33,914 bases of DNA. Source: Woeseiaceae bacterium. GTDB lineage: Bacteria > Pseudomonadota > Gammaproteobacteria > Steroidobacterales > Woeseiaceae. Position 1 is the stretch's first letter; every line of letters starts with the position of its first letter. Of the stretch, positions 5,966-30,518 are shown one piece after another. The stretch lies in the NCBI GenBank assembly GCA_049583345.1, contig JBAUVS010000592.1:1-33914 (forward strand), read 5' to 3'. Made by a program: the position numbers and the translations under genes. The notes under the pieces were generated by a model. It saw only the letters and a program-made list of their open reading frames with translations. It ran no database searches and was not told where the DNA came from.

Positions 5966-6027
5966 GATTTACTGTCCCGTCGAGCTTGCGTGTTTATGTC
6001 GCGCCTGTCGGCGACTCGTGCACCTGA

Positions 6028-10815: not shown

Positions 10816-11949
10816 TCAGTGCCGGCCGGGATACGGGAACTTCTCCACGGTCACTCTCTTGCCGGAGATCCTGTTCGTGCTGCTCGTTGTCGTGGCCATG
10901 AAGAGGGAATTGTAGATTGCCTCCTGTGTCGCCTCCGCGACGGCTTCGAACAGGGGCGACATACGATCGTTCGAAAGATCTTCGTAAGTCGCGACGTTCT
11001 CCCGGCGCCTTGCCGTCCGGCGCACGCTCTCGGCGACGGAGAAAGCGATCGCGTAGTCGCCGGATCCGTTCGAGAATCCTGCGCCCGTCCGTGCCAGGCC
11101 TGCGGATGCCCGCCGTGCCAGTCTCCTCAGGTTGCGGTCGGACAAGGGAGCGTCGGTCGCAACGATCATCATGATAGAACCTACCGAATCAGCGCCGGGC
11201 TGCTCGACCAGGGTCCCCATTCCGTAGTCGACGCCATTGATCGTCAGGCGGCCGCCGAAATTCGTCTGCACCAGGACCCCGACGGTGTAGCCGCCCTGCT
11301 CCGCGGGAAGAATCCGCGAGCTGGTGCCGATCCCGCCCTTCCAGCCGAAGGCCACCGTGCCGGTACCGGCACCGACGGCACCCTCGGCAACCGGTCCGCC
11401 GGACGCGTTCTCGATTGCTCTATAGATGTCTTTCGCTGTCAGCGCCCGGCCGCGAATGTCGTTGAGCCGGGAATCGTTTGTCTCTCCGACGATTGCGTTG
11501 ATCGATTTGACCTCTTCATTACCCGGCTGGACCAGCGTCCAGTCGAGTATCGCCTCTATGCCCGTAGCAACCGAAAGCGTATTGGTAAGCACGATCGGGG
11601 TCTCGATCTCGCCCAACTCGATCAGTTGAGTGCTGCCGGCCAGCTTGCCGAAACCGTTCGCGACATCCAGTCCCGCCGGTACGCGATCCTGGAACAGATT
11701 GCCGCCGTGGGGCAGAATCGCGGTCGCTCCGGTGCGGACGCTTTCGCCCTCCACGAGGGTCACGTGCCCGACCTTTACTCCCGCGACGTCGGTTATCGCA
11801 TTGAGCGGTCCCGGCGCATACACGCCCGGCGCAATGCCGAGATCGCGCGCCCGAACCCCGGTTTCGCCGGCGGCCGTCGCCCCGGCTGCCACGACAACGA
11901 GTCCAAACAGCCCGAAGCGGACAACCCTCTGCCGAAATGGTTTTCTCAT
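10816..11949 (-). CDS. P1/S58 family self-processing aminopeptidase (DmpA / BapA type), exported
   Basis: 377 aa with a signal peptide (FGLFGLVVVAAGATAAGE). Family blocks are ITDVAGVKVGHVTL, AILPHGGN, NAIVGETNDSRLNDI, VGAGTGTVAFGWKGGIGTSS (autoprocessing region), IMMIVATDAPL and NGSGDYAIAFS. Confidence 0.85.
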   Translation of the reverse strand: MRKPFRQRVVRFGLFGLVVVAAGATAAGETGVRARDLGIAPGVYAPGPLNAITDVAGVKVGHVTLVEGESVRTGATAILPHGGNLFQDRVPAGLDVANGFGKLAGSTQLIELGEIETPIVLTNTLSVATGIEAILDWTLVQPGNEEVKSINAIVGETNDSRLNDIRGRALTAKDIYRAIENASGGPVAEGAVGAGTGTVAFGWKGGIGTSSRILPAEQGGYTVGVLVQTNFGGRLTINGVDYGMGTLVEQPGADSVGSIMMIVATDAPLSDRNLRRLARRASAGLARTGAGFSNGSGDYAIAFSVAESVRRTARRRENVATYEDLSNDRMSPLFEAVAEATQEAIYNSLFMATTTSSTNRISGKRVTVEKFPYPGRH

Positions 11950-12038
11950 GATTCAGTCATCCTTCCGGCGGCATGCGCCGTCCGCGATTGGTCACGGATC
12001 GGGCGCCACACCAACCGGACGTTTTCCAATCTGTCACC

Positions 12039-12093
12039 GCTTGACCCGACCCCGGTATTCTATTATCTTGAACCAAAGGATAATAATTTGAAT
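12039..12093 (+). promoter_or_regulatory. Conserved promoter/operator module, copy B (upstream of the membrane-protein gene, divergent from the DmpA-type gene)
   Basis: Sequence GCTTGACCCgaccccggtATTCTATTATCTTGAACCAAAGGATAATAATTTGAAT. TTGACC (12041-12046) is followed by 17 nt and TATCTT (12064-12069). It has the same spacing and box order as copy A. Confidence 0.55.
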
Positions 12094-12112
12094 CGTTGCA
12101 GGGGGTAGCACC

Positions 12113-12652
12113 ATGTCCACTGATTCGCCCGTCGAAAGAATCCCGATGTGGCTTGCCGTCGCCTTGACGGTCGTCGCATCGATGCCCTTCGGCCTCTGGC
12201 TCGGCAAGTACAATTTCGCACTGTGGTGCTGTTTCATCGTGTGGGCGGAATATTTCGCTCTGGGAGCAAGCCCCGCGGCCCTGCGCCTGATCGTACCGAG
12301 TTTTTCCTACTCCGTTGTACTGACGGCCGTCACCCTTTGGGCCGTGCAACTGTTCGACTTCCTGCCCTCGCTCAGGACCGAGGGCGATCTCGCCGTGACG
12401 GTCGCTCTGTTCGCCGGCATCGCCTTGACCGTCTACACGATGCGGTACTCCAGGATCTTCCAGGATGGCTCCCTGCCCTTTTTCAATGGAATATCGATGG
12501 GGCTTGCAATCTATTTCACGGGCAGCTTCCCGGACTTCGGCGGCATCCTCCCGGCCGCGCTCGCCGCCGGTGCCTGGACCGTCCTGATGGGACTCTTCGG
12601 CTGCGCGTTGGGCGTATTCAACGTCTGGATTACTTTCCCCAGGCACCGTTAG
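12113..12652 (+). CDS. Small polytopic inner-membrane protein, possibly DUF1097 (YcdZ-like)
   Basis: 179 aa with about five hydrophobic helices and RBS GGGGG. The pattern LWCCFIVWAEYFALGA resembles the YcdZ family as I remember it. The family call is tentative. Confidence 0.6.
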   Translation: MSTDSPVERIPMWLAVALTVVASMPFGLWLGKYNFALWCCFIVWAEYFALGASPAALRLIVPSFSYSVVLTAVTLWAVQLFDFLPSLRTEGDLAVTVALFAGIALTVYTMRYSRIFQDGSLPFFNGISMGLAIYFTGSFPDFGGILPAALAAGAWTVLMGLFGCALGVFNVWITFPRHR

Positions 12653-12722
12653 TCATTCCCTCGCCTCGAGGTCCGACCGGCGGAAGCGGGTCAAGGGATT
12701 CCCGGTTCCGGTCCCGGGTACC

Positions 12723-13853
12723 TCAGGCATCACTGACGCCGTCCAGCAGCGGCTCGAGCCGCGGATATTCGGCGCCGTTCTCGGTGCACACGGCGAAATG
12801 CGCCTTCTCGGCGCCGGCGTACATCGCGACGCCGGCGTATTCACCGCGTTTGTTGAGCACGTAGAAGCGCAGATCGAACTTCGGCAGGCCGCGATCGTTG
12901 ATCAGGCGCTTCTCGACCGTGTTGGCCTTGACGCGCTTCAGGGCCGCGATCGCCGCGTCCTTGGGATGCTTTCCGCGCCGCATCTCCTCCACAATCAGGA
13001 AGGAGTTCAGGCCATACAGATTCGCTTCGCCCCGCCCGGTCGAACCCGCAGCGCCGACCTCGTTGTCGACGTACAGGCCCGCACCGAGGATCGGTGAATC
13101 CCCGACCCGGCCCGGAATCTTCCAGGCAAGGCCGCTCGTCGTCGTCACACCGCAAACGTCCCCCGAAGGATTGATCCCGTTGCAGTTGATCGTACCGTAG
13201 AAGCCCTCCGCGTCGATCAGTCCTTCGCGCACCATTTCCCGTGCCGCCCGCATGCCGGCCGCAATCCGCTCCGCCTCGCTCGGGTAGTGCCCCGGGTCCA
13301 CCCTGCGTTTCCATTCCAGCCATAGCTTGCGGGACGTGTCCGTGTTGAGATCGTCTTCGATCTCGAAGCCAACGTTTCTGGCGAAACGTTGCGCGCCCTC
13401 TCCTACGAGCAGGTGATGATCGGTCAGTTCCATTACGGCATGAGCCACATTCGAGGGCGTACGCACGCCTTCCAGGGCCGCGACACCGCCTGCCCGCCGC
13501 TTGGGGCCATGCATGACGCAGGAGTCGAGTTGCACGACGCCGTCGGCATTCGGCAGTCCACCGTATCCTACGCTGGTCTCCTCCGGATCGAGCTCGACGA
13601 TGTTAACGCCATGTATGAGCGATTCCAGCACATCGTCCCCTTCCTCCACCATGTGGCGGAAGGCCGTTTCCACGCAATTGGCGTCACCGCCGTTCTTGCG
13701 CGTATAGCCGTTTCCGGCCGAAATGATGACGGGTTTGGTGCGCCCGGTGACAACGGCAGGGGCTGCCTCGAGTACTCCTGCGGACGTTGCGGCGGCGAGG
13801 CCTGCAAGCGATCCCACGGTGATGAAGCCCCGTCGGCTGATTGTGTCGGTCAT
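12723..13853 (-). CDS. Ntn-hydrolase asparaginase family: glycosylasparaginase / isoaspartyl peptidase type, Tat-exported
   Basis: 376 aa with the twin-arginine leader MTDTISRRGFITVGSLAGLAAATSAG. The autoprocessing/nucleophile region is FYGTINCNG. Family blocks include TTTSGLAWKIPGRVGDSPILGAGLYVD and GAAGSTGRGE. RBS is GAGGAAG. Confidence 0.85.
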   Translation of the reverse strand: MTDTISRRGFITVGSLAGLAAATSAGVLEAAPAVVTGRTKPVIISAGNGYTRKNGGDANCVETAFRHMVEEGDDVLESLIHGVNIVELDPEETSVGYGGLPNADGVVQLDSCVMHGPKRRAGGVAALEGVRTPSNVAHAVMELTDHHLLVGEGAQRFARNVGFEIEDDLNTDTSRKLWLEWKRRVDPGHYPSEAERIAAGMRAAREMVREGLIDAEGFYGTINCNGINPSGDVCGVTTTSGLAWKIPGRVGDSPILGAGLYVDNEVGAAGSTGRGEANLYGLNSFLIVEEMRRGKHPKDAAIAALKRVKANTVEKRLINDRGLPKFDLRFYVLNKRGEYAGVAMYAGAEKAHFAVCTENGAEYPRLEPLLDGVSDA

Positions 13854-13954: not shown

Positions 13955-16627
13955 TCAGAACGAGACGTCCAGTCGTGCGTAGTAGGAACCCCCTTGATAC
14001 GGCGTTCCTTCTTTCCAGTACTGTATGCCGCGGTTGGTTTTCGGGTCGATCTTCTCCGGAACGGATTTCGGATAGTTGTCGAATACGTTATCCGCCCCGA
14101 TCGTCATTCGGATCGCGTCACTGATCTGATAGGCGGCGGATATGTCGATGAATACGTCCGAGGGGAGTTGGTCGACGATGTAGGATCCATCGGGATTCGT
14201 GTAGCCGAATGCCACTTTCTGTGCTCCCCACAATCGGCCCCGCGCTCCGAGTGTCAGTTTGTCGTTCAGGACGTAGTTTGCCGTCAGTACGGCGCGATGC
14301 GGCGGAGAGAACAACTCGGTTTGGAGATTTGTGATCTCGTCGGAGATTGCGGGATCGAATTTCGTTACGTCGGTCTTTACGTACGCGTACGCGAGTGACA
14401 GCGACAGTTGCGAGGAGAACAGATCCATCACGCGGGTGCCCACGACTTCCACGCCCTTCGTCGTGGTATTGAGGCCGTTGCCGTAGAATCTTGCTTCCGT
14501 CAGGAACGCCGCCCCGGGGAAGCCCGAATCGATCAACTCCTGAAACGCCGGAGCATAGGCCGGGTTCGATGCCTGATACCTTTGCGACAGCCGGATGCGA
14601 TCGTCGAGCTTGATCTGGAAAGCGTCGATCGTGATATCCGTGTAGTCGCCCGGCGTCCACACGAAGCCCAGTGAATAATTATTCGCTTTTTCCGCCTTTA
14701 GGGGAGACGCGCCCAACGCAATGGCCAGCGGATGGCTCGCGGGGAAGACGCCGCCATAGTTGACGGTGCCGCCGAAAAAGCCCGTAGTCAACTGCAGGTT
14801 GTCAATCTGGCCGAGCGACGGTGCGTGAAAACCGGTCGACACCGCGCCCCGGATCGCGAGGACATCCGGAATGAGTTGAAACCGTCCTGATACCTTCACG
14901 CTGGTGTTGTTGCCGAAATCCGAATAGTCCTCATAGCGAACTGCGGCGGTCAGGTTGAGTGCTTCGGTCACCTGCGCATCCAGGTCGACATAGGCAGCGT
15001 AACTGCTGCGCGTGGACTCGAAGAGCGCTGCAATCGGCGTTCCGGTGAAGCCGTTGGCGCCGACGGCAAGGTCTGATAACGGCCCCACCTTCCAGGAATT
15101 CTCCTCACCGTTGATGTTGTAATAATGTTCCCGGCGGTAATTCGCGCCGAACGAGATGAGCAGCGTGTCGATCGAGTCGGTCTTTACGGTATAGCCGAAG
15201 TCGGCATTGATTGCGCCTTCGATGTTGACGAGCCCGCCATTGTAGAAGCTCGTCTGCACGTTGGCGTAGTCGATGGAGCCGTCGGGGGCCATCGGTGCAC
15301 CGAGCGAAGAGTTTTGGGTGCCCCGGTTCCATATATCGACCCGGCTGCGGCCGAACGATCCCGACACGTCCCAGGTCAGCCCATTCGAACGTTCGCCGCG
15401 AACGCCGGCGTACGCGCCGAAGTCGGGGCCCTGAATCGTAATTCTGGGTGTGTATCCGGCCGGAAACGCCAGTTTTGGATCGTAGCCGACCGGCGCTGCG
15501 CCGTTTGTCGAGGTCGCGTTCGGGCCGTCCGCCAACAGGTAGGCGGCGTCGGCTGCGGCCTCGACGCCGATCAGGGCTTCGAGTTCAGGCAGTGTCAATT
15601 GGGTCGGGTTCATGTTGGAAGGAGGCGATCCGATACTGCCGTTTGGAAAGTGCAGCTCCGGGATGTCCGAACACGGCCGCAAACCGGGATGGTGGTGCGA
15701 GCCGCCCTCGCAATACAGGTTCGAGCGGTAGTTGGCCGTCTGCAGGTTGGAGATCTCGGCGAAATTGCCGAAGGTATATAGCTCAACGGATTCGGTGATG
15801 GGTATGGCCGAATTCCAGGTCACTTGCGTCATGTCCTGCGCGGTGATTCCGGCGTACTGCGCCTTCAATGGATCGATGTCGATCGTTACCCCTCTCCGCT
15901 CCCCGTCCGCAAGCATCGCAACCGCGTCGAGATGCGGCAGGTTTCTCTGGGTCGGGTCCTGCGAACTGTGCGATACAGTTACCGTGAGGAAGCCCTCGTC
16001 ATTCAGGAAATGAGTGCCGTATTTTCCGGCCACTGTGTACAGGGCTCCGTCGCCTTCGTAGTACTCGCTGTAGCCCGCACGCACGGACATGCCCTCCGAA
16101 GAATCCATGACGAGGTTGATCACGCCTGCGACTGCATCGGCACCATAGAGGGCGGATGCACCGTCGCGGAGTATCTCCACGTTACTCAGGCCGATCGTGC
16201 CGAAGGTGCTGACGTTCTGCTGCTGAATGCCGAGCTTGTTGACGATCGAGGATCGATGCACCCGTTTGCCGTTGAGGAGCAGCAGGATTTCACCGCCGTC
16301 GAGCCCGCGCAGATTCGTTTCTCTGGAAAAGGAATCCTGGTCCGACGATGATTCCCGATGCGCATAGTACGAGGGCGACACGTCCATGAGCGCATCCTTG
16401 ATGTCGGCCTGCGGCGTCTTTATCAACTCCGTTACCGGAATGACATCCACCGGTACGGTGGATTCCAATGCCGTCCTACCCTTGGCTCGCGTTCCGACGG
16501 AGACAATTACTTCCAGTACGTCCTTGTTGGCGGAATTTTCCGCCGGCTCGCCGGTTTGCTGTCCGGGCGCCGGGAAACTGGCGCCCAGCAGGGCGGCGCC
16601 GATGATACACAGTGCCTGCGTTCTCAT
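13955..16627 (-). CDS. TonB-dependent outer-membrane receptor 2
   Basis: 890 aa with the signal peptide MRTQALCIIGAALLGASFPAPG. Plug blocks are LEVIVSVGTRAKGRTALESTVPVDVI, NLRGLDG and VEILRDGASALYGADAVAGVINLV. The C-terminus is YYARLDVSF with a terminal Phe. Confidence 0.92.
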   Translation of the reverse strand: MRTQALCIIGAALLGASFPAPGQQTGEPAENSANKDVLEVIVSVGTRAKGRTALESTVPVDVIPVTELIKTPQADIKDALMDVSPSYYAHRESSSDQDSFSRETNLRGLDGGEILLLLNGKRVHRSSIVNKLGIQQQNVSTFGTIGLSNVEILRDGASALYGADAVAGVINLVMDSSEGMSVRAGYSEYYEGDGALYTVAGKYGTHFLNDEGFLTVTVSHSSQDPTQRNLPHLDAVAMLADGERRGVTIDIDPLKAQYAGITAQDMTQVTWNSAIPITESVELYTFGNFAEISNLQTANYRSNLYCEGGSHHHPGLRPCSDIPELHFPNGSIGSPPSNMNPTQLTLPELEALIGVEAAADAAYLLADGPNATSTNGAAPVGYDPKLAFPAGYTPRITIQGPDFGAYAGVRGERSNGLTWDVSGSFGRSRVDIWNRGTQNSSLGAPMAPDGSIDYANVQTSFYNGGLVNIEGAINADFGYTVKTDSIDTLLISFGANYRREHYYNINGEENSWKVGPLSDLAVGANGFTGTPIAALFESTRSSYAAYVDLDAQVTEALNLTAAVRYEDYSDFGNNTSVKVSGRFQLIPDVLAIRGAVSTGFHAPSLGQIDNLQLTTGFFGGTVNYGGVFPASHPLAIALGASPLKAEKANNYSLGFVWTPGDYTDITIDAFQIKLDDRIRLSQRYQASNPAYAPAFQELIDSGFPGAAFLTEARFYGNGLNTTTKGVEVVGTRVMDLFSSQLSLSLAYAYVKTDVTKFDPAISDEITNLQTELFSPPHRAVLTANYVLNDKLTLGARGRLWGAQKVAFGYTNPDGSYIVDQLPSDVFIDISAAYQISDAIRMTIGADNVFDNYPKSVPEKIDPKTNRGIQYWKEGTPYQGGSYYARLDVSF

Positions 16628-16820: not shown

Positions 16821-17240
16821 TCACTCGTTTCGGGGTGCGGCCTGGCATTCCTCTCCGGAGACGTATCTCGCCAGTGCCTCAATCTCGGAATCACTCAGAC
16901 CAATCGCCTGGTCGATCATCAGACCTTTAGTCAGTGCGTCGATGACATAGTCCTTCGAGAATTTCGCCATCATTTCTCTGGTCGGTATGCCGGGCACGAC
17001 GTCATGGCATTTGGCACATCGCTGCTGGTACAAGGCCGCACCGGCCGACAGAGCTTCGGATTCGACAGTGGCCTTCGAGCGCTGGTCCCGGCCGCTGACC
17101 GAGTCGTAGTCTAACGGCGATCCGAGACGGACTTCGGTCCCATCGCAGCCCATACCCGTGTACGGCACTGCCGCAAGTACCAGGGCGGTAACGAGGATCG
17201 GTGTCCGGTGTGAGTGGCGCCTCCAAATCGGGTACATCAT
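16821..17240 (-). CDS. Exported monohaem c-type cytochrome
   Basis: I prefer the start at MMYPIWRR (ATG 17240), which gives a hydrophobic leader ILVTALVLAAVPYTGMGC. The haem motif lies in GAALYQQRCAKCHD (CxxCH). A distal Met region GLMIDQA is followed by LSDSEIEALARYV, typical of class I cytochromes c. Confidence 0.75.
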   Translation of the reverse strand: MMYPIWRRHSHRTPILVTALVLAAVPYTGMGCDGTEVRLGSPLDYDSVSGRDQRSKATVESEALSAGAALYQQRCAKCHDVVPGIPTREMMAKFSKDYVIDALTKGLMIDQAIGLSDSEIEALARYVSGEECQAAPRNE

Positions 17241-17489
17241 TCGCTTTGACTCCGGGCTTGCGGAAGTCTGCAGGGGCTCCGCGGCCGATTGTCGTGTAGT
17301 CGCGGCCAGACCCGTCGGCCCGTAAAACAGCATACGGCGAAGAGCGCTTGTGCTCGCTGCAACGACTGACAAGGATCAACAGGACATCGCGCAGAACATC
17401 CTGAGCATCGTCCTGCCATTTTTCTTTACTGCGGACTTCAGCAATGACTATACTGCCGCTAGTGTGTCCATTTCCGTCCGACGGCGTAG

Positions 17490-17504
17490 TTCAATCATAT
17501 TGAA
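17490..17504. promoter_or_regulatory. Palindromic operator candidate (copy E) in front of the XRE/cupin regulator gene
   Basis: TTCAATcatATTGAA is a perfect 6-3-6 palindrome. An AT-rich tail TATAAATAAAAATACTGGAAAT follows and resembles the tail of copy C (GATAAAATAATGGGAAT). A candidate promoter TTTACT (17425-17430)-N18-TATACT (17449-17454) lies upstream, so the palindrome would sit in the transcribed leader. Confidence 0.45.
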
Positions 17505-17532
17505 TATAAATAAAAATACTGGAAATAGTCAA

Positions 17533-18087
17533 GTGACCATAGGCGAACGGCTTAGAAAAATCAGGAGAACTCAGGGACGCACCCTCAAAGAAATCGCCGG
17601 CAACTCCAATATCACCGTCAGCTTGCTATCCAAGATCGAGAACAACAAGTCGCAACCTCCGATCGCAACGCTTACCCGCATTTCCAGCGCTCTGGGAGTC
17701 AGCACTTCATCGCTGCTTAGCGACGATGATGAACCCGGAACGATTTTCGTCCCGGCGAAGAACACGGCGCAGACGACACGCGCCGATAAGGGCTATGAGT
17801 TTTTTAGCTTCGCGACGCAGCGGCCGTCGAAACTGATGGACGTATTCCTGTTCTCGGCAAAGAAAGGAGAAGTGACCCCGCAAGCCATGTGTCACAGCGG
17901 TGAAGAATTCATCTACGTCCTGAGCGGCAAGATGGAATATTCAGTCGGCAGTGCGCAATTTACGCTAAAAGCCGGAGATGCGCTGTATTTTGATTCAGAG
18001 GCGGATCACGACCTGCAGCCGCTTACCAAGGAAGTAAAATACCTCGCAGTGTTCTGTTCCCGGCCGAAGAATAAGAAGAAGAAATAG
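17533..18087 (+). CDS. XRE-family HTH transcriptional regulator with C-terminal cupin sensor domain
   Basis: The GTG start at 17533 gives 184 aa. The HTH region is IGERLRKIRRTQGRTLKEIAGNSNITVSLLSKIENNKSQPPIATLTRISSALGV and the cupin region is HSGEEFIYVLSGKMEYSVG...LKAGDALYFDSEADHDL. The upstream part of the track ORF is AT-rich non-coding. By eye the gene is less GC-rich than its neighbours. Confidence 0.85.
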   Translation: MTIGERLRKIRRTQGRTLKEIAGNSNITVSLLSKIENNKSQPPIATLTRISSALGVSTSSLLSDDDEPGTIFVPAKNTAQTTRADKGYEFFSFATQRPSKLMDVFLFSAKKGEVTPQAMCHSGEEFIYVLSGKMEYSVGSAQFTLKAGDALYFDSEADHDLQPLTKEVKYLAVFCSRPKNKKKK

Positions 18088-19887
18088 TCAGTCTTTCCCG
18101 GATTTCAGTCCGAAGGCCTGGATACGGTCCGTACCGACGATAACCCGTCCGTTGACGACGGCGGGTTCGTTGTATTTTCCGCTAGTGTGCAGTTCGCCAT
18201 CCCGGCTGCGCCACAGCACCTCCAGTGTCTCGCCGTCCATGGCATAGAGAATCGGCTGTGGCGGATTGTCCGCGTCCCACGGAGACACGGCTCTGGTCGC
18301 ATTCATGTCCAGCACCCATATGATGGCGTCCCGGACGCCGTTGCTACTAATCACCGGCGAACCGGGATTCAGGAACACTTGCGAGAGATTCTGGCGATCC
18401 ACGGACAGATAGGCGGGTCTGCCGGGTTCAGTCACGATGGCCATACGCACCAGGCTGGGTGGGATATTTTCGACGGACTCGGCGTTGACCTTCGTGTTAC
18501 CTGTGGCGTAGAGATAATGGTGCCCGGCGCCGTCGTGATAATAAGCCGCCGTCGTTCGGCTCTTCGCGTAGTCGTACCATCCCAGGTCGGCCGAATAGGG
18601 TCCGAATACGTTCAACGGACCGCGTTGGCCGAATTGCGGTTGATCTTCGGGAGGCAGCAGCGACAGGTCGCTGGTCGAGTCGTCACTGCAAGGGTGCCGG
18701 CGCACGAGACTGCCCGGCATGTTGTCACGATCCAGCAGGAACGCGTTGCCCTGCTTGCCGCCGACCAGCGCAAGCAGCCGCGGAGTACTGGTCTGCGCAG
18801 GATCAAGGTCGATCACCAGCGTGCCGCTGCTACCGAGATCGATATCGTTGGATTGCGCGCGGCAGTAGTCGAATGGCGTGAATGTGCCGACGAGTTCAAA
18901 GCCTGCGGGGCCGTCGTTCAACTGGAGTATCGACTGGCCCCAGTTGTGGTCGCTGTCAGGAAAGACCCCGGCGATACCTGCCTTGTTGACGGCAAAAACG
19001 ACACTTGCGCCGGTGGCTATATACACGCGATCTTGTTCGTCCACGGCCGTTCCGCTGGCCGCCCACATGCCGCCCTGATGTTCGGCCGTCACCGCGGTCG
19101 TCGAGAATGCCGAAGCGACTTTCGCTTCGTTCGTATCCACTGAGACCAGCCAGCCACTGAACGTGTCCTTGCCGAAGGGAACGTACAGCCGCGTGCCGTT
19201 GCCATTCAGGTTCAGCGCGCCCCGCTGGATCACGTACGGCCTGTCAGGAAACTCTGTCGGGCCGTTCCGATTCATCCCGGGAACGTTGATGGTGGCGTGG
19301 CTGATCTCGACAGGCCAGCCTGGGGCCAACTGGCCGCTGCCGAGATCGAACGCGTGGACCTGGTAGTTCGCCGTATTGTCGCAACTGACGACGTACACGC
19401 GATGCGTTGCCGCATCGATGACGGGCGTGCCCAGCACGGCCTCGCGACCGTTGACGCAAGGTTCCGTCGTCAGTCGGCGGCTCCACAGAATTTCGCCGGG
19501 AGGGATATCGCCGTGCTCTCCGGCATTGATCGCATAGAGGTAACCGGTCCCAGTGGCCGCGATCACGACGGCAGTGCTTTCGCCGTCATGCGGCCCACCC
19601 TCGAGCCGCAGCTTGGACACGTACAGTGGCGAAGCGAAGATCCGCGGCGCTTCGTTATTGAAAGAATCGAGCTGCGGCGACTCCCACTTGAGTTCCAACC
19701 CGGAACCGGCAACGTTATCCGGCGTGAGGATCGTCTCGAAGCGGTTCCAGCCACTGCGCTTCCGGTCGTTGTGTTGCATCAGCTTGTCGACGCCCGGAAC
19801 CGCCAGGTCTCCGGTCGACACGCAGGCGCAGACGAACAGCCACACGCCAAGCAGCACCAATCCGCCGCGTAGCGGCAGCAATCTCAT
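18088..19887 (-). CDS. Exported beta-propeller repeat protein (PQQ-like/BamB-like repeats), function unknown
   Basis: ATG 19887-19885 overlaps the upstream stop 19886-19884 (ATGA), giving 599 aa. The leader is MRLLPLRGGLVLLGVWLFVCAC. Recurrent blade-like segments include ASPLYV, GTPVID...RVYVVS, YQVHAFDLGSG, RVYIATG, LYAMDGETLEVLW and NGRVIVGTD. I saw no vicinal Cys-Cys or other quinoprotein hallmark. Confidence 0.7.
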   Translation of the reverse strand: MRLLPLRGGLVLLGVWLFVCACVSTGDLAVPGVDKLMQHNDRKRSGWNRFETILTPDNVAGSGLELKWESPQLDSFNNEAPRIFASPLYVSKLRLEGGPHDGESTAVVIAATGTGYLYAINAGEHGDIPPGEILWSRRLTTEPCVNGREAVLGTPVIDAATHRVYVVSCDNTANYQVHAFDLGSGQLAPGWPVEISHATINVPGMNRNGPTEFPDRPYVIQRGALNLNGNGTRLYVPFGKDTFSGWLVSVDTNEAKVASAFSTTAVTAEHQGGMWAASGTAVDEQDRVYIATGASVVFAVNKAGIAGVFPDSDHNWGQSILQLNDGPAGFELVGTFTPFDYCRAQSNDIDLGSSGTLVIDLDPAQTSTPRLLALVGGKQGNAFLLDRDNMPGSLVRRHPCSDDSTSDLSLLPPEDQPQFGQRGPLNVFGPYSADLGWYDYAKSRTTAAYYHDGAGHHYLYATGNTKVNAESVENIPPSLVRMAIVTEPGRPAYLSVDRQNLSQVFLNPGSPVISSNGVRDAIIWVLDMNATRAVSPWDADNPPQPILYAMDGETLEVLWRSRDGELHTSGKYNEPAVVNGRVIVGTDRIQAFGLKSGKD

Positions 19888-21176
19888 TCGCCCACGACCT
19901 CCCGCCACCCGTTGTTGAACGTAATGGCGAGCTTCGCGTCCACGTCGCCGATATTTCGCGCCTTGTGCAGGACTCCTTGCGGGATGCTGACCGTATCGCC
20001 CGCGGACATTTCCACGGTTTCGTCACCCACAGTCTGGGCGATCCTGCCGCTCAGCACATGCAGTATCTCGTCGCAATTTGGGTGAAAGTGCAGCGAATTC
20101 GATTCGCCCGGCCGCACGGTCGCCATACCGACCGTCATGGTCTTCGAATTTTTGAGTGGCCCTGAAACATACCATTCGATTTCGCCCCACGGTTTTTCGA
20201 CGCGCTGATCGTCCGCCGAATGGCTCACGATCGCCTCCGGCAATCGACGCGGATATTCACCTGCCGGAAACTCCGCCTGTTCGGCGGCATTGGCTGCGGT
20301 AGTCGTTGTCGCACCACCTTCCGGGACGTCGACGCCAGCCGTCCACAGCACGGCGTTCAAAAACGCGGTTCTGAGGGACGGGTTGTCCCAGGTTGCCAGA
20401 AAGTGCGCGCCGACGTATGCGAACGACCTGCCGCCGTTCTCTCGCTCGTAGGCCCAGGCGACGTTATACCGCTTTATCTCGAATTCGACTGTCGGTTCGC
20501 TGTGCTGGTAGTGAATCGGCAGTTCCGCGGTCCAGATCGGCGTAATTTTGCCAGCGGTACTGAATTCCAGCGTCGGAAAATACTCGTCGACCAGCACTGT
20601 ATCCTCGAGTCCGCGCGTGATCGGGTGCCCGGTCTCAGCGACGTTCAGTAACGCGGGCTTGGTCGTACGGTTGAAATATCCATACCGCGCCGCACCGACC
20701 CAGTCCTTCATCGGCACGGTCGTATTTCCTTCCGGGAGGGTAAAGGACTGGTGCAGGGCGACGAGGCCGACACCACGATCCACCAGCTTCGCAATCACGG
20801 CTTGCTTGCGCGCGTCCAACAGAGGATTGCGGTCTCTGCCGTTGAAGTAGAAGACGACCGTCGCCGCGTCCTCGAGTGCGTCCGCCGACGGCCATCCGTA
20901 AGGGTAGGCCTCGATCTCGAACTCCGGATGCGCCACCAGTTGCGGTGACCGACGCAGCATGTCTTCCATCAGCTGCACGCCGTGAGACCAGTCGTGTTCC
21001 CCGGGCGCAAAGACTCCGTCGCCGCCGATGAGGACGATCTTGCTGGTTGCAGGCTTCGCGCAAGCGGACAAACCCGCCCCGACGAGCAGCGTGGCGGCAA
21101 GCAATACCCCCGCATATGCTATGACGCCCGGCTGACGGCCGTCTCGGGTCCCTCGATTTTCCTTTCGCATATCCAT
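19884..21176 (-). CDS. ThuA-like domain fused to a C-terminal metal-binding cupin; predicted lipoprotein (paralog 1)
   Basis: The start MDMRKENRG (ATG 21176 or 21170, with GGGAGG just upstream) gives a leader ending in the lipobox LSAC. ThuA-like region is KIVLIGGD...GEHDW...VVFYFNG...GVGLVALHQS...AWAYERENGGRSFAYVGAHF...LNAVLWTAG. Both cupin motifs are intact: HFHPNCDEILHVLSG and GDTVSIPQGVLHKARN. Confidence 0.75.
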   Translation of the reverse strand: MDMRKENRGTRDGRQPGVIAYAGVLLAATLLVGAGLSACAKPATSKIVLIGGDGVFAPGEHDWSHGVQLMEDMLRRSPQLVAHPEFEIEAYPYGWPSADALEDAATVVFYFNGRDRNPLLDARKQAVIAKLVDRGVGLVALHQSFTLPEGNTTVPMKDWVGAARYGYFNRTTKPALLNVAETGHPITRGLEDTVLVDEYFPTLEFSTAGKITPIWTAELPIHYQHSEPTVEFEIKRYNVAWAYERENGGRSFAYVGAHFLATWDNPSLRTAFLNAVLWTAGVDVPEGGATTTTAANAAEQAEFPAGEYPRRLPEAIVSHSADDQRVEKPWGEIEWYVSGPLKNSKTMTVGMATVRPGESNSLHFHPNCDEILHVLSGRIAQTVGDETVEMSAGDTVSIPQGVLHKARNIGDVDAKLAITFNNGWREVVGE

Positions 21177-21237
21177 CAATCCTCCCGCCAGCACGCCATC
21201 GATCTTTTCATAGTGCTGAAGAACTCGTTCAAAAAGC

Positions 21238-22077
21238 TCAAGATGCCTTTGCGAGCCGCAGAGCCTTGAGCGCCTCGACCTGTCCCCTGATGCCGCGTTC
21301 CGTCGGCAGGCGCTCGATGCTTGAGGCTCCGAAGAAGCCATTCACGCCCGGCATCCTCTCCATGGCCGGACCCACCGATGCGGGTTCGTCGAACGGGCCA
21401 CCGTGGCAGATCACCAGCAGCTCCTTGTTCACGCTGCGGCCCGCACGCGCGATCTTCATCACCAGCTCGATGCTTTCCTCCATAGGGGAGGCGACAGCCG
21501 CACCGATACTGCCGGAGACCGTGAGCCCGACATGAGCAACCAGCATGTCCGCGCCGGCCTCGGCCATCGCGCGCGCCTGTTCCTGATCGAAAACATACGG
21601 CGAGCAGAACAGCCCCATCTCGTGCGCGATGGAGATCATCTCGATCTCCTTGTCGAAGCCCATCCCGGTGCCTTCCAGGTTGGCGCGAAAATCACCATCG
21701 ATCAGGCCAACCGTCGGGAAATTCTGGACGCCGGAAAATCCGGCTTCGGACAGCTGCCGGAGGAATACGGGCATCAGCCGAAACGGATCGGTGCCGCAAA
21801 CTCCGGCCAGTACCGGAATTCCCTTGACGACGGTTAATACTTCCGCCGCCATTTCCATTACGATGCCGTTCGCATCGCCATAGGGCATCAGCCCTGCAAG
21901 AGAACCGCGGCCCGCCATGCGGTACCGGCCCGAATTGTAGATGATGAGCAGGTCCGCACCACCGGCCTCCGCAAACTTGGCGGATATGCCGGTGCCCGCG
22001 CCACAACCGATGATCGGCTTCCCTGCGGCTACCTGGGACCTCAGCCGGTCGACTATTTCGTTGCGAGAGAGAGCCAT
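21238..22077 (-). CDS. Phosphoenolpyruvate-hydrolase-like TIM-barrel protein (partner of the Tm-1-like protein)
   Basis: 279 aa, no signal peptide, RBS GAGGAGGAA. Blocks are GKPIIGCGAGTGISAKFAEAGGADLLIIYNSGRYRMAGRGSLAGL, GVQNFPTVGL and ADMLVAHVGLT. Confidence 0.75.
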   Translation of the reverse strand: MALSRNEIVDRLRSQVAAGKPIIGCGAGTGISAKFAEAGGADLLIIYNSGRYRMAGRGSLAGLMPYGDANGIVMEMAAEVLTVVKGIPVLAGVCGTDPFRLMPVFLRQLSEAGFSGVQNFPTVGLIDGDFRANLEGTGMGFDKEIEMISIAHEMGLFCSPYVFDQEQARAMAEAGADMLVAHVGLTVSGSIGAAVASPMEESIELVMKIARAGRSVNKELLVICHGGPFDEPASVGPAMERMPGVNGFFGASSIERLPTERGIRGQVEALKALRLAKAS

Positions 22078-22125
22078 GGATTCCTCCTCGGTATTGTTCC
22101 GTACGTTTCGCCGTGGTCGCCGCGG

Positions 22126-23340
22126 CTATTGCTCAATGAGCTGCAGGAGCTGATCAGTCGCGGCAGACGAAAACTCGGCATCGTTGATGTTGTGATTGAG
22201 CTCGATCACGGGGATATCGCTCCGTACTTTCCGTTTGATCGCCTCGAAACAGGCCGCGTCGGCCTCAGGATCCCAGAATCGGTCGCCCTCCGAGTCGAGC
22301 ATCGAAACACCGCGAAGCGGCAGCAGGATTGCGCACGCGGCGGTCGAACGGTTCGCAGCGTTAGCGATCATTTCTCCGATGCGAGTGTTCTCATCGACAT
22401 TGGTACGCAGCAGCGTCACGTTCGGATTCCATTCATAAAGCAACCGATCCTGATACTTTTGGGGCACCGAGTCTCTGGAACCGAAATTCGCCATGTCGAC
22501 GCATCCGGGCACGAGCACGGCCGGGACGCCGGCCATTGCTGCGGCCAGGCACCGGTTCTGTCCTGCATCGAAAACGCCCCCGCAAACGAAGTCGGCGAGT
22601 TCCGTCGTTGTGATGTCCAGCACTCCCTCGACCTGCCGTTCCGCGATCAGAGATTCCATCGTACGTCCGCCGATGCCGGTGCAGTGGAATATGAGCGTTT
22701 CGAAACCGTGTTCGCGGAGTCTCTCACTGGCTGCCGAGACAGCCGTGGTCGTGTTGCCGAACATCGAGGCTGCGATCAGTCGCTGGTCCGTATGCGTGTC
22801 CTGTCGCGGCTGCGTTGATACCATGCCCGCCGCAGCCCCGGCCGCGTTCGCGAAGATCCGGCGACTGATGCGATTCAGACCCGCGACGTCCACTATAGAA
22901 GGAACAAATACAATGTCTTTGGTTCCGGCATAGGCGCTGACGTCGCCGCCCCCAACCGTGGAAACCATCACCTTCGGCACGCCAACGGGCAGAGCTCGCA
23001 TGGCCGCCGTAACGACCGATGTGCCTCCGCTGCCGCCCATCCCCATGATGCCGTCGATCTCACCGGCCGCGAATAACCTGGTAACGACGTTCTCGACGCC
23101 CCTGGTGACGGCTTTCATCGCCTCGTCCTTGTGCTTGCCGGACTTGAATTTGCCGATATCGCCGCCGCCCGATTCGATGACGCTTTCGCGGCTGACATCG
23201 GGATTGAAGTACGGTTCCCCTATGATGCCGAAATCGACGGTGAGGACGCTTACCCCGTGGCTCTCCAGGATCTCGCGCACATATTCGAATTCCTTACCCT
23301 TTGTGTCGAAAGACCCCACCAGGGCGATTGTCTTTTTCAT
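22126..23340 (-). CDS. Tm-1-like ATP-binding protein (UPF0261 family)
   Basis: The start MKKTIALVGSFDTKGKEFEY (ATG 23340, GGAG upstream) gives 404 aa with no signal peptide. Blocks are GMGGSGGTSVVTAAMRALPVGVPKVMVST, SMFGNTT, FHCTGIGGRTME, DITTTELAD and VPGCVDMANFG. Confidence 0.8.
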   Translation of the reverse strand: MKKTIALVGSFDTKGKEFEYVREILESHGVSVLTVDFGIIGEPYFNPDVSRESVIESGGGDIGKFKSGKHKDEAMKAVTRGVENVVTRLFAAGEIDGIMGMGGSGGTSVVTAAMRALPVGVPKVMVSTVGGGDVSAYAGTKDIVFVPSIVDVAGLNRISRRIFANAAGAAAGMVSTQPRQDTHTDQRLIAASMFGNTTTAVSAASERLREHGFETLIFHCTGIGGRTMESLIAERQVEGVLDITTTELADFVCGGVFDAGQNRCLAAAMAGVPAVLVPGCVDMANFGSRDSVPQKYQDRLLYEWNPNVTLLRTNVDENTRIGEMIANAANRSTAACAILLPLRGVSMLDSEGDRFWDPEADAACFEAIKRKVRSDIPVIELNHNINDAEFSSAATDQLLQLIEQ

Positions 23341-23498
23341 TTCGTTACTCCACGCCGACCGGCCTGGGCCGGGAGTCTGACAAATACCGCTCCTCGTACG
23401 AGGCAAAGGTGTTCGTAGCTGAACTGCCCTCCGGTACCGGGACTTGGATTTCGAATCCGTGGATCCTGCCGATTGGGTTCGGTTCCGGAGTGCGGTGC

Positions 23499-24830
23499 CT
23501 ATTCTCCGACTACTTCTCGCCAGGCCGTATCGAAACTGATGGCGAGCTGCGCGTCTTCGTCACCAATATTCGTTGCATTGTGGTGCACACCCTGCGGAAT
23601 GCTTATCGTGTCACCGGCGGACATTTCCACCGTTACCCCGTTCATCGAATGAAGGATCTTGCCGCTCAAGACGTGGAGCACCTCGCTGCAGTTCGGATGG
23701 AAGTGCACCGGGTTCGCTTTTCCGGGCAGAACCGTCGCCAGACCCACCGTCATCGAGTTTGAGTTGCCCAGCGCACCGGAGACGTACCACTCGATGCGCC
23801 CCCACGGCAGCTCGACAAGCTCGTAATCGTCTGGCTTACTGACGACAGCGTTAGTTATCCGCGTCGATTCACCGCCGGGAAACGACAGCTTGTTTGCCGC
23901 GTCCGGCTTCGCGTTTGTCGTGGCGCCCGCGGGCGGTACATCCTTGCCGGCCGTCCATAAGATTGCATTCAATAGTGCTGTCCTCGCCTGCACATCATCC
24001 CAACTTTTTTGGAAGTGACCGCCGCTGTATGCGAACGATCGGCCCCCATTCTTCCGTTCGTAGGCCCACGCGACTACATAGGCCGCGGGTGGAATGGATG
24101 CCGTCGGTACGCCTTCCAGATAGTGGATAGGCAATTCGGCTGTCCAGACCGGTGTTATCTTGCCGTTGGAATTATTGAATTCCAGCGTCGGATAGTACTC
24201 ATCGTAATGCACGAAGTTTTCGAGTCCGCGCAGGACCGGGTGATTACCAGTGCCGACAATCAACTCCGCGGGTTTCGTGGTCCGGTCGTGCTTGCCGTAA
24301 CGTACGCCGCCGAGCCATTGTTGCATCGGTACGCCAGTGTCCCCTTTTGGAAAGGTAAACGACTGGTGTAACGCGACCAGTCCCACTCCGCGATTCATCA
24401 GCTGTGCGAACACGTCGCGCTTTTTGGGGTCGAGCAACGGGTTTGATCCATCTCCATTGAAATAGAGGACGACAGTGGCTGCATGCTGTAGCGATTCATC
24501 GCCGGGCCAACCATACGGGTGCGCGTCGATTGTCAGATCCGAATACGCCGCCAGTTGGGGTGACTGTTTCAGCATCTCCTCGATGAACTTCACGCCATGT
24601 GGCCAATCGTGCTCGCCCGGCCTGCTCGTCCAATCGCCGCCGATGAGTACGATCCTGTTGCCTCGTTCCGCAGCATGGGCCGGGATCGTCGCGACGACTA
24701 CGGCCGCAATCACGGCAAGTGAGACAATCGCAACCCGCAAGATCGCCAAATAAGACGGCCACTCGCGATCCGTCACGGGAGCGAAGCTGGCCGGCAAATG
24801 CTGCCTATGATTGCGGGATCGTCGTGGCAT
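23499..24830 (-). CDS. ThuA-like domain fused to a C-terminal metal-binding cupin; exported (paralog 2)
   Basis: 443 aa with RBS AGGAG 9 nt upstream. The hydrophobic leader ends in AHAAE. It is collinear with paralog 1 over its whole length and ends identically in WREVVGE. The cupin motifs are HFHPNCSEVLHVLSG and GDTISIPQGVHHNATN. Confidence 0.8.
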   Translation of the reverse strand: MPRRSRNHRQHLPASFAPVTDREWPSYLAILRVAIVSLAVIAAVVVATIPAHAAERGNRIVLIGGDWTSRPGEHDWPHGVKFIEEMLKQSPQLAAYSDLTIDAHPYGWPGDESLQHAATVVLYFNGDGSNPLLDPKKRDVFAQLMNRGVGLVALHQSFTFPKGDTGVPMQQWLGGVRYGKHDRTTKPAELIVGTGNHPVLRGLENFVHYDEYYPTLEFNNSNGKITPVWTAELPIHYLEGVPTASIPPAAYVVAWAYERKNGGRSFAYSGGHFQKSWDDVQARTALLNAILWTAGKDVPPAGATTNAKPDAANKLSFPGGESTRITNAVVSKPDDYELVELPWGRIEWYVSGALGNSNSMTVGLATVLPGKANPVHFHPNCSEVLHVLSGKILHSMNGVTVEMSAGDTISIPQGVHHNATNIGDEDAQLAISFDTAWREVVGE

Positions 24831-29069: not shown

Positions 29070-30329
29070 TTACTTCGAAGCGGACTGCTGCTTGTCGGCC
29101 CGATTCCGGTAAGCAAGAATGGTCACCGCCAGTTCGTCCGTAAATGCCTTTAATTTCGGGCCGTTCGGGCCCCCTCCGGAAGTGTTGGTCTGCGCCGCGA
29201 TCACGATTTCGAGATCGGCGAGGATCGTCAGCTGACTATGCCCACCAACGCTGCCGCCACTGTGTGAAATCACCCGGATTCCTTTTTCGTCCGGGGACAG
29301 GTCGTCTCGAACGCGGCTGTACCAGCCCAACGCGTAACCGTCAGGGTCCTTACCGCCAGGTGCGCGTGCAACAGGTGTAAACAGTAGCTGGCGGCTCGCG
29401 TCCGAAAGATACGCCTCGTCCAATACCGTCAGTCCGGCCCGAACCAGATCGCTGGGCGTCGAGAGGAATCCGCCACTGGCCCATTTGACACTGAGATTCA
29501 CCGGATACGCTGGTCCATATTTGCCCTGACCGGATACGTAGAAGCTGACCCGATCGGGCATGGATGCGTCCTTGCGATCCGGTTGTGTGGCCTTCATTCC
29601 GGCCGGCGAGAATACTTCGTTACGCATCAGCGTCAGGTAATCCATTCCCGATGCCGCTTCCAGGACTGCGCTAAGGAGGTTGTAACCGTATGAGCTGTAT
29701 CGAAAGTCCGTACCCGGATCAAAGAGCAAATCATCGTACTCGAATACCTCGAGTGCGTCCGATACGGTGTCGAACTGCCGGTCGAGGTAGAAGTCGTTCG
29801 GCGGCCATCGCAGGATACTGTTGCGATAGTGGCGGATACCTGCCCGGTGGCTCGCCAACAGACGAGATGTAATTGGCGTATTCGATCGTGGATAGTCGGG
29901 CAGGTAGTCATGCACCGGACGGTCCAGGTCCAGCGTCCCCGTTTCCACAAGACGCGCCATTGCCATGGAAGTCAGGGATTTCGAAATGCTGCCCACCCTG
30001 TACTGACTATGGACCGTTGCCGGCACTCTGCGCTCGATGTCCGCATACCCGTGAGTTCCCGCCCAGACGAGCTTTCCGTCGATCGCCACCGCCACCGAAA
30101 CCGACGGCGCACTCCATTCTTGTAGCTTGGCTTTCGAGAGTCCATCCAGATTGGCGAGCAAGCCCTCGTACCCTGATTCATACGAGACCTGTTCGCCGGC
30201 GTCGGCCCAGGCCTCAGGCAGCCGCTCATGAGGCACCTGCCACGTCCAGTAAAAATGCCCCAGCGCGGCAAGATACAGGAGTATCGTGGTTCCAATGGCC
30301 GTGCCGAGGACCTTCCCGATTCTGATCAT
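29070..30329 (-). CDS. Beta-lactamase-fold serine hydrolase (penicillin-binding / D-aminopeptidase / esterase class), N-terminally membrane-anchored
   Basis: The start MIRIGKVLG (ATG 30329) has GGAGG 6 nt upstream, so I prefer it to the GTG at 30344. The hydrophobic anchor is GTAIGTTILLYLAALG and the SxxK motif is YRVGSISKSLTS. YSSYGYNLL (YxN-like) and HSGGSVGG (KTG-equivalent region) follow. Confidence 0.8.
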   Translation of the reverse strand: MIRIGKVLGTAIGTTILLYLAALGHFYWTWQVPHERLPEAWADAGEQVSYESGYEGLLANLDGLSKAKLQEWSAPSVSVAVAIDGKLVWAGTHGYADIERRVPATVHSQYRVGSISKSLTSMAMARLVETGTLDLDRPVHDYLPDYPRSNTPITSRLLASHRAGIRHYRNSILRWPPNDFYLDRQFDTVSDALEVFEYDDLLFDPGTDFRYSSYGYNLLSAVLEAASGMDYLTLMRNEVFSPAGMKATQPDRKDASMPDRVSFYVSGQGKYGPAYPVNLSVKWASGGFLSTPSDLVRAGLTVLDEAYLSDASRQLLFTPVARAPGGKDPDGYALGWYSRVRDDLSPDEKGIRVISHSGGSVGGHSQLTILADLEIVIAAQTNTSGGGPNGPKLKAFTDELAVTILAYRNRADKQQSASK

Positions 30330-30518
30330 GGTTGCCTCCGCCACGCCTCTCCGGTGAGGTGCCCAGGGCCGGGTCGGCGGTGACCGGTGCGCGGCGATTG
30401 TGTGGAATTGGAGTCTGATCGAACAACCCGGTCGCTAACGACCGTGTAACCTGAGCGGTGACACCCGATGACAGGGAGGTAGCAAAGCGACCCTAAAATA
30501 GCAGTCATCGCGTTTCGC

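Follow-up and report, generated by a model that had tools for sequence, protein, structure and literature searches.

Exported proteins that join a ThuA-like domain to a cupin are encoded twice on a 33,914-nucleotide contig (JBAUVS010000592.1, assembly GCA_049583345.1) from a Woeseiaceae bacterium. The source genome is a 3.5-Mb metagenome-assembled genome (MAG), 91% complete, and the entire 34-kb contig was analysed; it is called the window below. The two genes, here termed paralogues A and B, are the sole ThuA–cupin copies and the sole ThuA domains in this genome. Between them lie the two genes of a Tm-1-like pair, a UPF0261 protein and a PEP-hydrolase-like TIM barrel. An exported β-propeller is encoded directly downstream of A, and a monohaem cytochrome c gene follows further on. 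The ThuA–cupin protein is very probably partnered with the propeller, a conclusion drawn from gene order and from protein fusions in related bacteria. The explanation favoured here, at a probability of about 0.5, is that ThuA–cupin is a partner subunit of a periplasmic, cytochrome-c-linked module for sugar or glycoside oxidation, in which the cupin acts on the oxidised product. These conserved partners lay outside an earlier, preliminary description of the same DNA, and they supply the functional context of the fusion. Coordinates of the genes and their parts are collected in table 1.

Table 1. Genes and sub-gene features at the ThuA–cupin locus (window coordinates).
Feature	Position	Strand	Remarks
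ThuA–cupin paralogue A	19884–21176	minus	430 aa from ATG at 21176; predicted lipoprotein
A, signal and lipobox LSAC	~21060–21176	minus	
A, ThuA domain	~20322–21044	minus	
A, cupin domain	~19887–20216	minus	
A, cupin motif 1	20067–20090	minus	ligands H363, H365, E370 (with D369); read in sequence
A, cupin motif 2 ligand H404	19965–19967	minus	conserved in family alignment
ThuA–cupin paralogue B	23499–24830	minus	443 aa; predicted exported or signal-anchored (AHA/AE)
B, ThuA domain	~23934–24659	minus	
B, cupin domain	~23502–23831	minus	
B, cupin motif 1	23682–23705	minus	H376, H378, E383; Ser382 at 23685–23687
B, cupin motif 2 ligand H417	23580–23582	minus	
β-Propeller, 8-bladed	18088–19887	minus	599 aa from ATG 19887; predicted exported, lipoprotein-like
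Cytochrome c, monohaem	16821–17372	minus	exported; PF13442
PEP-hydrolase-like TIM barrel	21238–22077	minus	279 aa, cytoplasmic; second half of split Tm-1-like pair; PF09370 397.7 bits
UPF0261 (Tm-1-like/MarK-family ATP-binding)	22126–23406	minus	PF06792 + PF23189; NF002674 554 bits; likely start near 23340
XRE-family helix-turn-helix + cupin regulator	17350–18087	plus	HTH_3 + Cupin_2; convergent with propeller
TonB-dependent receptor	13955–16627	minus	Plug + TonB barrel
Asparaginase_2 (isoaspartyl peptidase/glycosylasparaginase family)	12723–13853		

A and B are true paralogues, as the preliminary description held. BLASTP aligns them collinearly from end to end with 238 of 396 residues identical (60%), 73% positives and two gaps (E = 4e-176). 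The shared stretches quoted earlier (GVGLVALHQSF, ELPIHY, VAWAYER.NGGRSFAY, WG.IEWYVSG and WREVVGE) are all present. At the DNA level they are 62% identical over their whole length and 64% over the mature part. The claim that the N-terminal domain is ThuA-like is borne out by the Pfam hidden Markov models, and both proteins pass the gathering cut-offs for ThuA (PF06283, 33.4 bits) and Cupin_2 (PF07883, 27.2 bits): A scores 53.3 and 64 bits, B 68.4 and 57 bits. Both copies also retain a complete metal-binding cupin signature, again as first described. The pattern applied was G-x5-H-x-H-x3,4-E-x6-G for motif 1 and G-x5-P-x-G-x2-H-x3-N for motif 2. Paralogue A has H363-x-H365-x4-E370 and G-x5-P-x-G-x2-H404-x3-N408, and the ligands H376/H378/E383/H417 of B match this set, with both motifs complete. 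Conservation was assessed in an alignment of 93 family sequences, which serves for all family comparisons below (A numbering). H363, H365 and E370 never vary, and H404 is conserved in at least 90% of the sequences. The second-shell cupin residues N367, C368, D369 and N408 are conserved across phyla. Conserved polar residues of the ThuA part are H61, D62, H142, Q143, D169, R170, D197, E198, E244, R245, R250 and H258. The ThuA part contains no invariant or nearly invariant cysteine among the 93 sequences and so lacks the glutamine-amidotransferase nucleophile. As read from sequence, A and B are exported two-domain proteins, with a ThuA-like domain devoid of this nucleophile followed by a predicted mononuclear 3-His/1-Glu cupin.

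Export signals were predicted by eye and with heuristic rules. The N-terminus of A shows a basic n-region, a hydrophobic core and a lipobox L-S-A-C (…AGLSAC). That of B shows a long hydrophobic segment ending in AHA/AE, and B may be either cleaved or signal-anchored. A longer frame of 485 aa for A is rejected: orthologues share the start of the 430-aa form, and the added stretch runs into the gene upstream. Heuristic scans of the family find a hydrophobic N-terminus in 88 of 93 members and an RR-like motif in just six. Tat export of the MncA type is rejected by the motif scan. A has no RR beside its hydrophobic region, and in B the RR lies about 25 residues upstream of it.

An AlphaFold2 (AF2) model of A, built from the family alignment (pLDDT 91, pTM 0.85), contains one cupin barrel. 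Fold matches of this C-terminal barrel are the Mn/Ni/Fe cupins OxdC, MncA and DddK and the phosphomannose isomerases (PMIs). The nearest PDB sequence for the cupin is MncA (2vqa; E = 2e-12 with the single sequence, 2e-10 with a profile), and oxalate decarboxylase/oxidase is matched as well. MncA of Synechocystis, OxdC and oxalate oxidase have the 3-His/1-Glu ligand set in common with the A/B cupin, and MncA is likewise periplasmic. Unlike MncA and OxdC, A and B are monocupins fused to ThuA and not bicupins, and their signals are, by the heuristic rules, of Sec/lipoprotein and not of Tat type. Assignment to the oxalate decarboxylase/bicupin family TIGR03404 is rejected, with 32.4 and 19.7 bits against a cut-off of 254 and a single barrel in the model. 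CucA, reportedly treated together with MncA in the paper behind that structure, is not itself among the matches. For the ThuA part, the best solved ThuA-like structure against the family profile is 4jqs, a remote match (E = 1.4e-4). A fold search with the whole A model gives no ThuA-type structure among the 50 matches listed, where cupin matches dominate.

Given Sec-type signals, ThuA–cupin would fold in the periplasm. By the principle drawn from MncA and CucA, this argues for Cu, Zn or Ni in the cupin and not Mn. In locus L035, from the next-closest relative, a gene for a HupE/UreJ-type Ni/Co permease (3829–4830) stands 1.4 kb upstream from the B-type copy, one unannotated gene intervening; it is a possible hint on the metal.

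The duplication is old, since synonymous sites between A and B are saturated (proportion of synonymous differences, pS, 0.74; non-synonymous divergence, dN, 0.34). Against their orthologues in a 95%-identical MAG (L001), the ratio of non-synonymous to synonymous divergence (dN/dS) is 0.20 for A and 0.17 for B. With values near 0.2 in both, purifying selection maintains the two copies. The earlier view of an old duplication with moderate DNA identity and two maintained genes thus holds. A maximum-likelihood tree places the A-type sequences (window, L001, P0003, P0004), the B-type sequences (window, P0007, P0005, P0011) and a small third group in one clade, with an SH-like approximate likelihood-ratio test (SH-aLRT) support of 99. 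Acidobacteriota, Verrucomicrobiota and other Gammaproteobacteria carry single-copy ThuA–cupin genes that fall outside this duplicated clade. The duplication is lineage-specific, confined to one gammaproteobacterial clade.

The two copies have diverged at the active site. The Asp that precedes the metal-binding Glu (HPNC-D-E) is found in all 82 (100%) of the members that belong to none of the A, B and third clades, and the A and third clades have it too. Column analysis of the alignment gives S/S/N/S at this position in the B clade, with Ser382 in the window's B. The A clade has changes of its own, with D169 replaced by N, F193 by T and N405 by K. A change from Asp to Ser beside the metal-binding Glu suggests altered substrate or metal chemistry in B. 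Gene position differs too: A overlaps the propeller start and is translationally coupled to it, and B stands in front of the Tm-1-like pair. These differences in position and active site are better founded than a difference between lipoprotein and soluble location. The preliminary description had assigned a lipoprotein and a soluble exported form and read them as sub-functionalisation. The heuristic predictions agree with the assignments, a lipobox in A and a non-lipoprotein signal in B, but sub-functionalisation is weakly founded. The lipobox occurs in three of four A-clade members and is missing from P0004, so the localisation difference is not fully conserved. A single-copy outgroup protein (L036, 6763–8061) is 59% identical to B and 51.5% to A. 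Being nearer to B, it implies that A kept the ancestral position but diverged faster overall, and that B altered the invariant Asp. A thus retains the ancestral position, and B is the duplicate specific to the source lineage.

The fusion itself is widespread. A word-indexed search finds at least 226 clusters (90% identity); every one of the 120 listed has both domains and a length of 380–470 aa. Fusion loci occur in Gammaproteobacteria, Steroidobacteraceae, Acidobacteriota and many Verrucomicrobiota. The earlier remark that a fusion to a cupin is unusual must therefore be withdrawn. The same description had envisaged that the fusion might prove common and already functionally annotated; common it is, but its members bear only generic source names ('cupin domain-containing', 'ThuA domain-containing', 'quercetin dioxygenase-like/type 1 glutamine amidotransferase'). 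When representatives at 50% identity were searched exhaustively, 2068 matches came back, about 7–9 of them full-length fusion clusters. The remainder are ThuA-only proteins, including giants of 1000–2200 aa, or cupins of about 120 aa. Among relatives of the source organism, none of 40 genomes, 24 from the same genus and 16 from the same order, carries ThuA–cupin. The block is accessory and probably horizontally acquired. A 95%-identical syntenic copy is found on a 206-kb contig of another MAG (L001), and the 34-kb contig may be mis-binned. A 2.7-kb contig in a Devosia (Alphaproteobacteria) MAG, L018, encodes a ThuA–cupin nearly identical in the tree to that of an Opitutaceae MAG (L016). This contig is probably mis-binned and not a true alphaproteobacterial case.

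The propeller is a frequent neighbour of the fusion. It adjoins ThuA–cupin downstream in 16 of 26 genome loci from three phyla and lies directly downstream in all seven of a further set of metagenome and genome loci (23 of 33 overall). The junction is about 90 nt or less, or overlapping, in 13 of the 16. In the window the propeller start codon overlaps the stop codon of A (ATGA), and stop/start overlap is common at this junction. Fusions connect the same parts. P0136 is a single lipoprotein made of ThuA (44% to A), propeller (49% over 566 aa) and cytochrome c, and P0044 joins DUF1080, a 3-keto-disaccharide hydrolase domain, to ThuA–cupin. Hundreds of clusters carry the propeller and cytochrome c in one protein, with or without DUF1080. 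Closely related ThuA domains also occur joined to a genuine pyrroloquinoline quinone (PQQ) dehydrogenase (PF01011) and to DUF7133/HEAT/cytochrome c giants. The window's cytochrome c is homologous by tblastn to the C-termini of fused propeller open reading frames (ORFs) of 656–906 aa (L002, L003, L004, L021 and L024; also L038 and L040).

The propeller itself matches no Pfam or NCBIfam family, PF01011 and PF13360 included, and no PDB sequence. Its AF2 model (pLDDT 91.6, pTM 0.91) finds its best Foldseek matches in alcohol dehydrogenases of the quinohaemoprotein and PQQ/lanthanide kinds (1kv9, 8gy2, 1kb0 and XoxF/MDH), with E values down to 6.6e-17, a TM-score of about 0.55 and about 13% identity. 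At least 981 clusters make up the propeller family; a C-terminal cytochrome c is present in most and DUF1080 as well in many, and a few relatives match PF13360. With the type II quinohaemoprotein alcohol dehydrogenases (1kv9, 1kb0) it shares eight blades, a periplasmic location and, in most relatives, the order of propeller then fused cytochrome c. Unlike those enzymes, the window propeller has its cytochrome c in a separate gene and a ThuA–cupin gene in front. A search for pqqC (TIGR02111) gives no match in the source MAG at its 91% completeness, and 14 control genomes are likewise silent.

Where the propeller is not adjacent, another haem protein often is. In six of the ten such genomes (L005, L007, L009, L016, L022 and L025) a DUF7133–cytochrome c homologue, or a protein combining glucose/sorbosone dehydrogenase (GSDH), PKD, cytochrome c and CBM6, stands beside ThuA–cupin. 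Pfam was run on L005, L007 and L009; L016, L022 and L025 were assigned by BLAST clustering with the L007 protein. The frequent companion is thus an exported dehydrogenase-like propeller with c-type haem and not one family. Locus L038 holds a second set of genes at 2936–9424, opposite its ThuA–cupin and propeller–DUF1080–cytochrome c pair: PEP-hydrolase-like, UPF0261, ThuA, a PQQ (PF01011)–cytochrome c dehydrogenase and ThuA. Here stand-alone ThuA genes thus flank a true quinohaemoprotein.

The Tm-1-like pair between A and B matches PF06792, PF23189 and PF09370, all at E < 1e-60. Such a pair lies within 10 kb of ThuA–cupin or of a stand-alone cupin in about 13 loci from four phyla. It accompanies ThuA–cupin in Acidobacteriota, Verrucomicrobiota and Gammaproteobacteria, and stand-alone cupin homologues in Actinobacteria. 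Carrier genomes encode UPF0261 in 17 of 24 cases, controls in 1 of 14. Tm-1/MarK proteins with a 'TBST' TIM barrel provide the comparison: the window has both halves, in split adjacent genes and not fused as in plants, and the context here is carbohydrate-like rather than aromatic. In L035, UPF0261 (7720–8935) and the propeller (11358–13152) are each called as two ORFs, with a frame change near 8301–8333 and at 12419–12421. These splits may be assembly errors or module decay.

An XRE–cupin protein is encoded beside the module in the window and also in L001 (98% identity), L035 (82%), L036 (67%) and L032 (45%), and it is the probable regulator. Its gene converges with that of the propeller with zero intergenic bases, splitting the propeller from the cytochrome c, which are fused or adjacent in other lineages. 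A scan for promoters and terminators across 16.5–32.2 kb finds sites no commoner than in shuffled sequence, and no terminators between genes. The single-copy gammaproteobacterium L036 has the order TonB receptor, Asparaginase_2, XRE–cupin regulator (opposite strand), ThuA–cupin, propeller, cytochrome c, UPF0261 and PEP-hydrolase-like. This is probably the ancestral layout, from which the source lineage duplicated ThuA–cupin and rearranged. The TonB receptor (59%) and Asparaginase_2 (69%) genes of L036 occupy 2090–6041, directly next to the regulator and ThuA–cupin genes. In L003, L039 and L041, too, a TonB-type outer-membrane protein is encoded before ThuA–cupin. The TonB receptor may be an uptake component, and its membership is uncertain. 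The synteny hints that receptor and Asparaginase_2 may both belong to the system and that a sugar and an Asp/Asn moiety might be combined in the substrate.

Genes for carbohydrate use recur around relatives of the module. LacI regulators occur in L003 and L015, and CBM6 with GSDH in L005 and L009. Gfo/Idh/MocA and DUF1080 are found in L040, a PfkB kinase and GH127 in L041, and an MFS sugar transporter and a GMC oxidoreductase in L036. The L003 locus also contains DUF2961 (glycoside hydrolase family GH172). DUF1080 is present as a fusion or a neighbour in Acidobacteriota-type relatives. Actinobacterial stand-alone cupin homologues, 50–60% identical, adjoin Gfo/Idh/MocA, a xylose-isomerase-like TIM barrel, a sugar ABC transporter and the Tm-1-like pair. 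The DUF1080 protein BT2157 hydrolyses 3-keto-trehalose, and ThuAB forms 3-keto-disaccharides (PMC8121099). An oxidised-sugar substrate is preferred because of the ThuAB link, the DUF1080 fusions, the neighbours in relatives and the actinobacterial cupin context.

Several known systems resemble parts of this arrangement. With ThuAB (thuEFGKAB of Sinorhizobium meliloti and Agrobacterium tumefaciens), A and B share the ThuA domain, the tie to a dehydrogenase and a 3-keto-glycoside theme, through DUF1080 fused to their partners. Unlike ThuAB, they are exported and fused to a cupin, and their partner is a propeller–cytochrome c and not the Gfo/Idh/MocA protein ThuB. Rhizobial ThuA is not known to carry a signal peptide. 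Neither PF01408 nor an ABC transporter domain of the thuEFGK kind is found in the 21 annotated window genes, and Gfo/Idh/MocA is present in the relatives L040 and L031. The BT2156–BT2160 cluster of Bacteroides and LacABC of Caulobacter follow a like logic, periplasmic glycoside oxidation and then DUF1080 hydrolysis (PMC8121099). The dehydrogenase here is neither Gfo/Idh/MocA nor the FAD-dependent LacA, and the cupin and the Tm-1-like pair have no counterpart there. Periplasmic cytochrome-linked dehydrogenase systems and 3-keto-glycoside routes are of a known kind; new is an undescribed conserved module that links four poorly understood protein families.

The proposed sugar or glycoside oxidation module would work as follows. 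(i) The substrate, likeliest a sugar or glycoside, would enter via the TonB-dependent receptor. (ii) The propeller would oxidise it and pass electrons to the c-type cytochrome, encoded by a separate gene here and fused elsewhere. (iii) The ThuA domain would dock with or assist the dehydrogenase, as ThuA does with ThuB in 3-keto-disaccharide formation. (iv) The metal centre of the cupin would convert the keto product by isomerisation, cleavage or further oxidation. (v) The product would be imported and handled in the cytoplasm by the UPF0261 kinase-like protein and the PEP-hydrolase-like TIM barrel. The physical partnership, the carbohydrate substrate and the reaction are what we infer here from observed architecture, ligands, export signals, selection, neighbourhoods and fusions.

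Several observations weigh against this scheme. With no PQQ Pfam model matched and a fold resemblance as distant as that given above, PQQ dependence and catalysis by the propeller are putative. The propeller is rejected as an obligate partner, for it is absent genome-wide from all ten genomes in which it is not adjacent. UPF0261 is rejected as an obligate companion in the same way, with 7 of 24 carrier genomes lacking it. Its sole known activity is that of the ATP-dependent aromatic kinase MarK (PMC12624787), which acts on phenols and not on sugars. The window module has no DUF1080, glycoside hydrolase or LacI gene beside it, and the two DUF1080 copies of the source genome lie on other contigs. 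The flanking genes of the window, for an M19 dipeptidase, an AmpH-like serine hydrolase, a racemase, an aspartase and Asparaginase_2, point to peptide or amino-acid use. The cupin is periplasmic in Gram-negative bacteria, yet several of the closest stand-alone homologues have no signal peptide, so the step must work in either compartment. In the literature, no paper on the ThuA–cupin fusion and no characterised member was found.

Alternative chemistries for the same genes are each improbable. In one, the cupin would be a Cu/Fe oxidase or oxygenase supplied with reductant by the propeller–cytochrome c, much as fungal dehydrogenase–cytochrome couples drive lytic polysaccharide monooxygenases. 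Sec-type export fits such a role, given that periplasm-folded cupins tend towards Cu/Zn over Mn (the principle in the title of PDB entry 2vqa), and cytochrome c, at times with CBM6, is found in the partners. Quercetinases and a 'cellulose oxidative enzyme' cupin (9bwf, E = 2.6e-4) are also among the profile matches. These oxidative-cupin matches are, however, no better than those to the non-redox PMI, KdgF and DddK. Cytoplasmic stand-alone homologues in Actinobacteria, moreover, occur with an NAD-type Gfo/Idh/MocA protein and no cytochrome. The proposal is unlikely on balance. A bolder proposal of comparably low probability is that ThuA, cupin, propeller, cytochrome and the Tm-1-like pair form one unrecognised enzyme system, shuffled in fused and split forms across phyla, with a redox-active cupin wired to the respiratory chain via the haem of its partner. 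Were this so, it would be a new class of periplasmic carbohydrate-oxidising machinery, and the first biochemical roles would follow for ThuA, the propeller family and the bacterial Tm-1-like pair.

Catabolism of aromatic or phenolic compounds is no likelier. Here the propeller would oxidise aryl alcohols, the cupin would cleave rings or act as a dioxygenase, and a MarK-like kinase would phosphorylate phenols, the substrates being aromatics from lignin or humus. The one demonstrated UPF0261 activity, phosphorylation of aromatic monomers (PMC12624787), speaks for it, and so do weak matches to gentisate 1,2-dioxygenase and quercetinase and the soil habit of the carriers (Acidobacteria, Verrucomicrobia). 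Yet the examined loci contain zero aromatic-pathway genes, the dioxygenase score is 20.6 bits against a cut-off of 442, and the recurring neighbours are of carbohydrate type (LacI, CBM6, GSDH, DUF1080, GH127, PfkB and Gfo/Idh/MocA).

Slightly less probable again is a locus-specific role in peptide, D-amino-acid or aspartate use, in which ThuA–cupin would serve the genes around it (M19 dipeptidase, AmpH-like hydrolase, racemase, SSF carrier, aspartase and isoaspartyl/glycosyl-asparaginase). A glyco-amino acid or a cell-wall fragment might then be the substrate. Ten genes run co-directionally from 31847 to 18088, and the distant L036 shares the linkage of the TonB receptor and Asparaginase_2 genes to the module. 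Genes for PF00144 (β-lactamase/AmpH-like) hydrolases recur directly upstream of ThuA–cupin in L037 (8770–9999, 1-nt gap) and L041 (5610–6938), and this domain is fused to it in P0076. The window's own PF00144 protein (29070–30344, in the same co-directional array) is rejected as the P0076 fused type, being just 28% identical to it, a family-level similarity. Moreover, the aspartase, racemase and SSF genes are adjacent solely in the 95%-identical MAG, the L035 flanks differ, and in Acidobacteriota and Verrucomicrobiota the core module is found with none of these genes. Least probable is a non-catalytic protein that binds or buffers periplasmic metal, or scaffolds or chaperones the dehydrogenase, in the manner of MncA and CucA, both abundant in the periplasm: the best PDB sequence match and the L035 permease gene favour it, but the second-shell cupin residues and polar ThuA residues conserved across phyla resemble an active site, and stand-alone homologues sit in catabolic operons.

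The sugar or glycoside oxidation module bears on protein families that are common among soil and freshwater bacteria and biochemically almost uncharacterised: ThuA domains, the UPF0261/PEP-hydrolase pair and the propeller family. Gene order and fusions tie these families and a metal cupin into one module. If the carbohydrate reading is true, a respiratory-chain-linked route of glycoside oxidation would operate in Acidobacteriota and Verrucomicrobiota, which are major and poorly understood recyclers of soil carbon. The paralogues A and B offer a natural comparison, in which one invariant residue by the metal site is altered on the same scaffold.

Other genes occur in the wider neighbourhood. 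Large proteins with an FGE-sulfatase domain, which resembles the formylglycine-generating enzyme, are encoded near the paired ThuA–cupin and propeller genes in three unrelated loci, L037 (5398–7932, two genes upstream), L039 (13237–15402) and L041 (7825–9975), adjoining in the last two; none is found in the window. The window segment 1203–7941 encodes GH97, an α/β-hydrolase-like protein, a PhoD-like phosphatase and DUF3604. L035 likewise has PhoD and DUF3604 genes as neighbours to the module.

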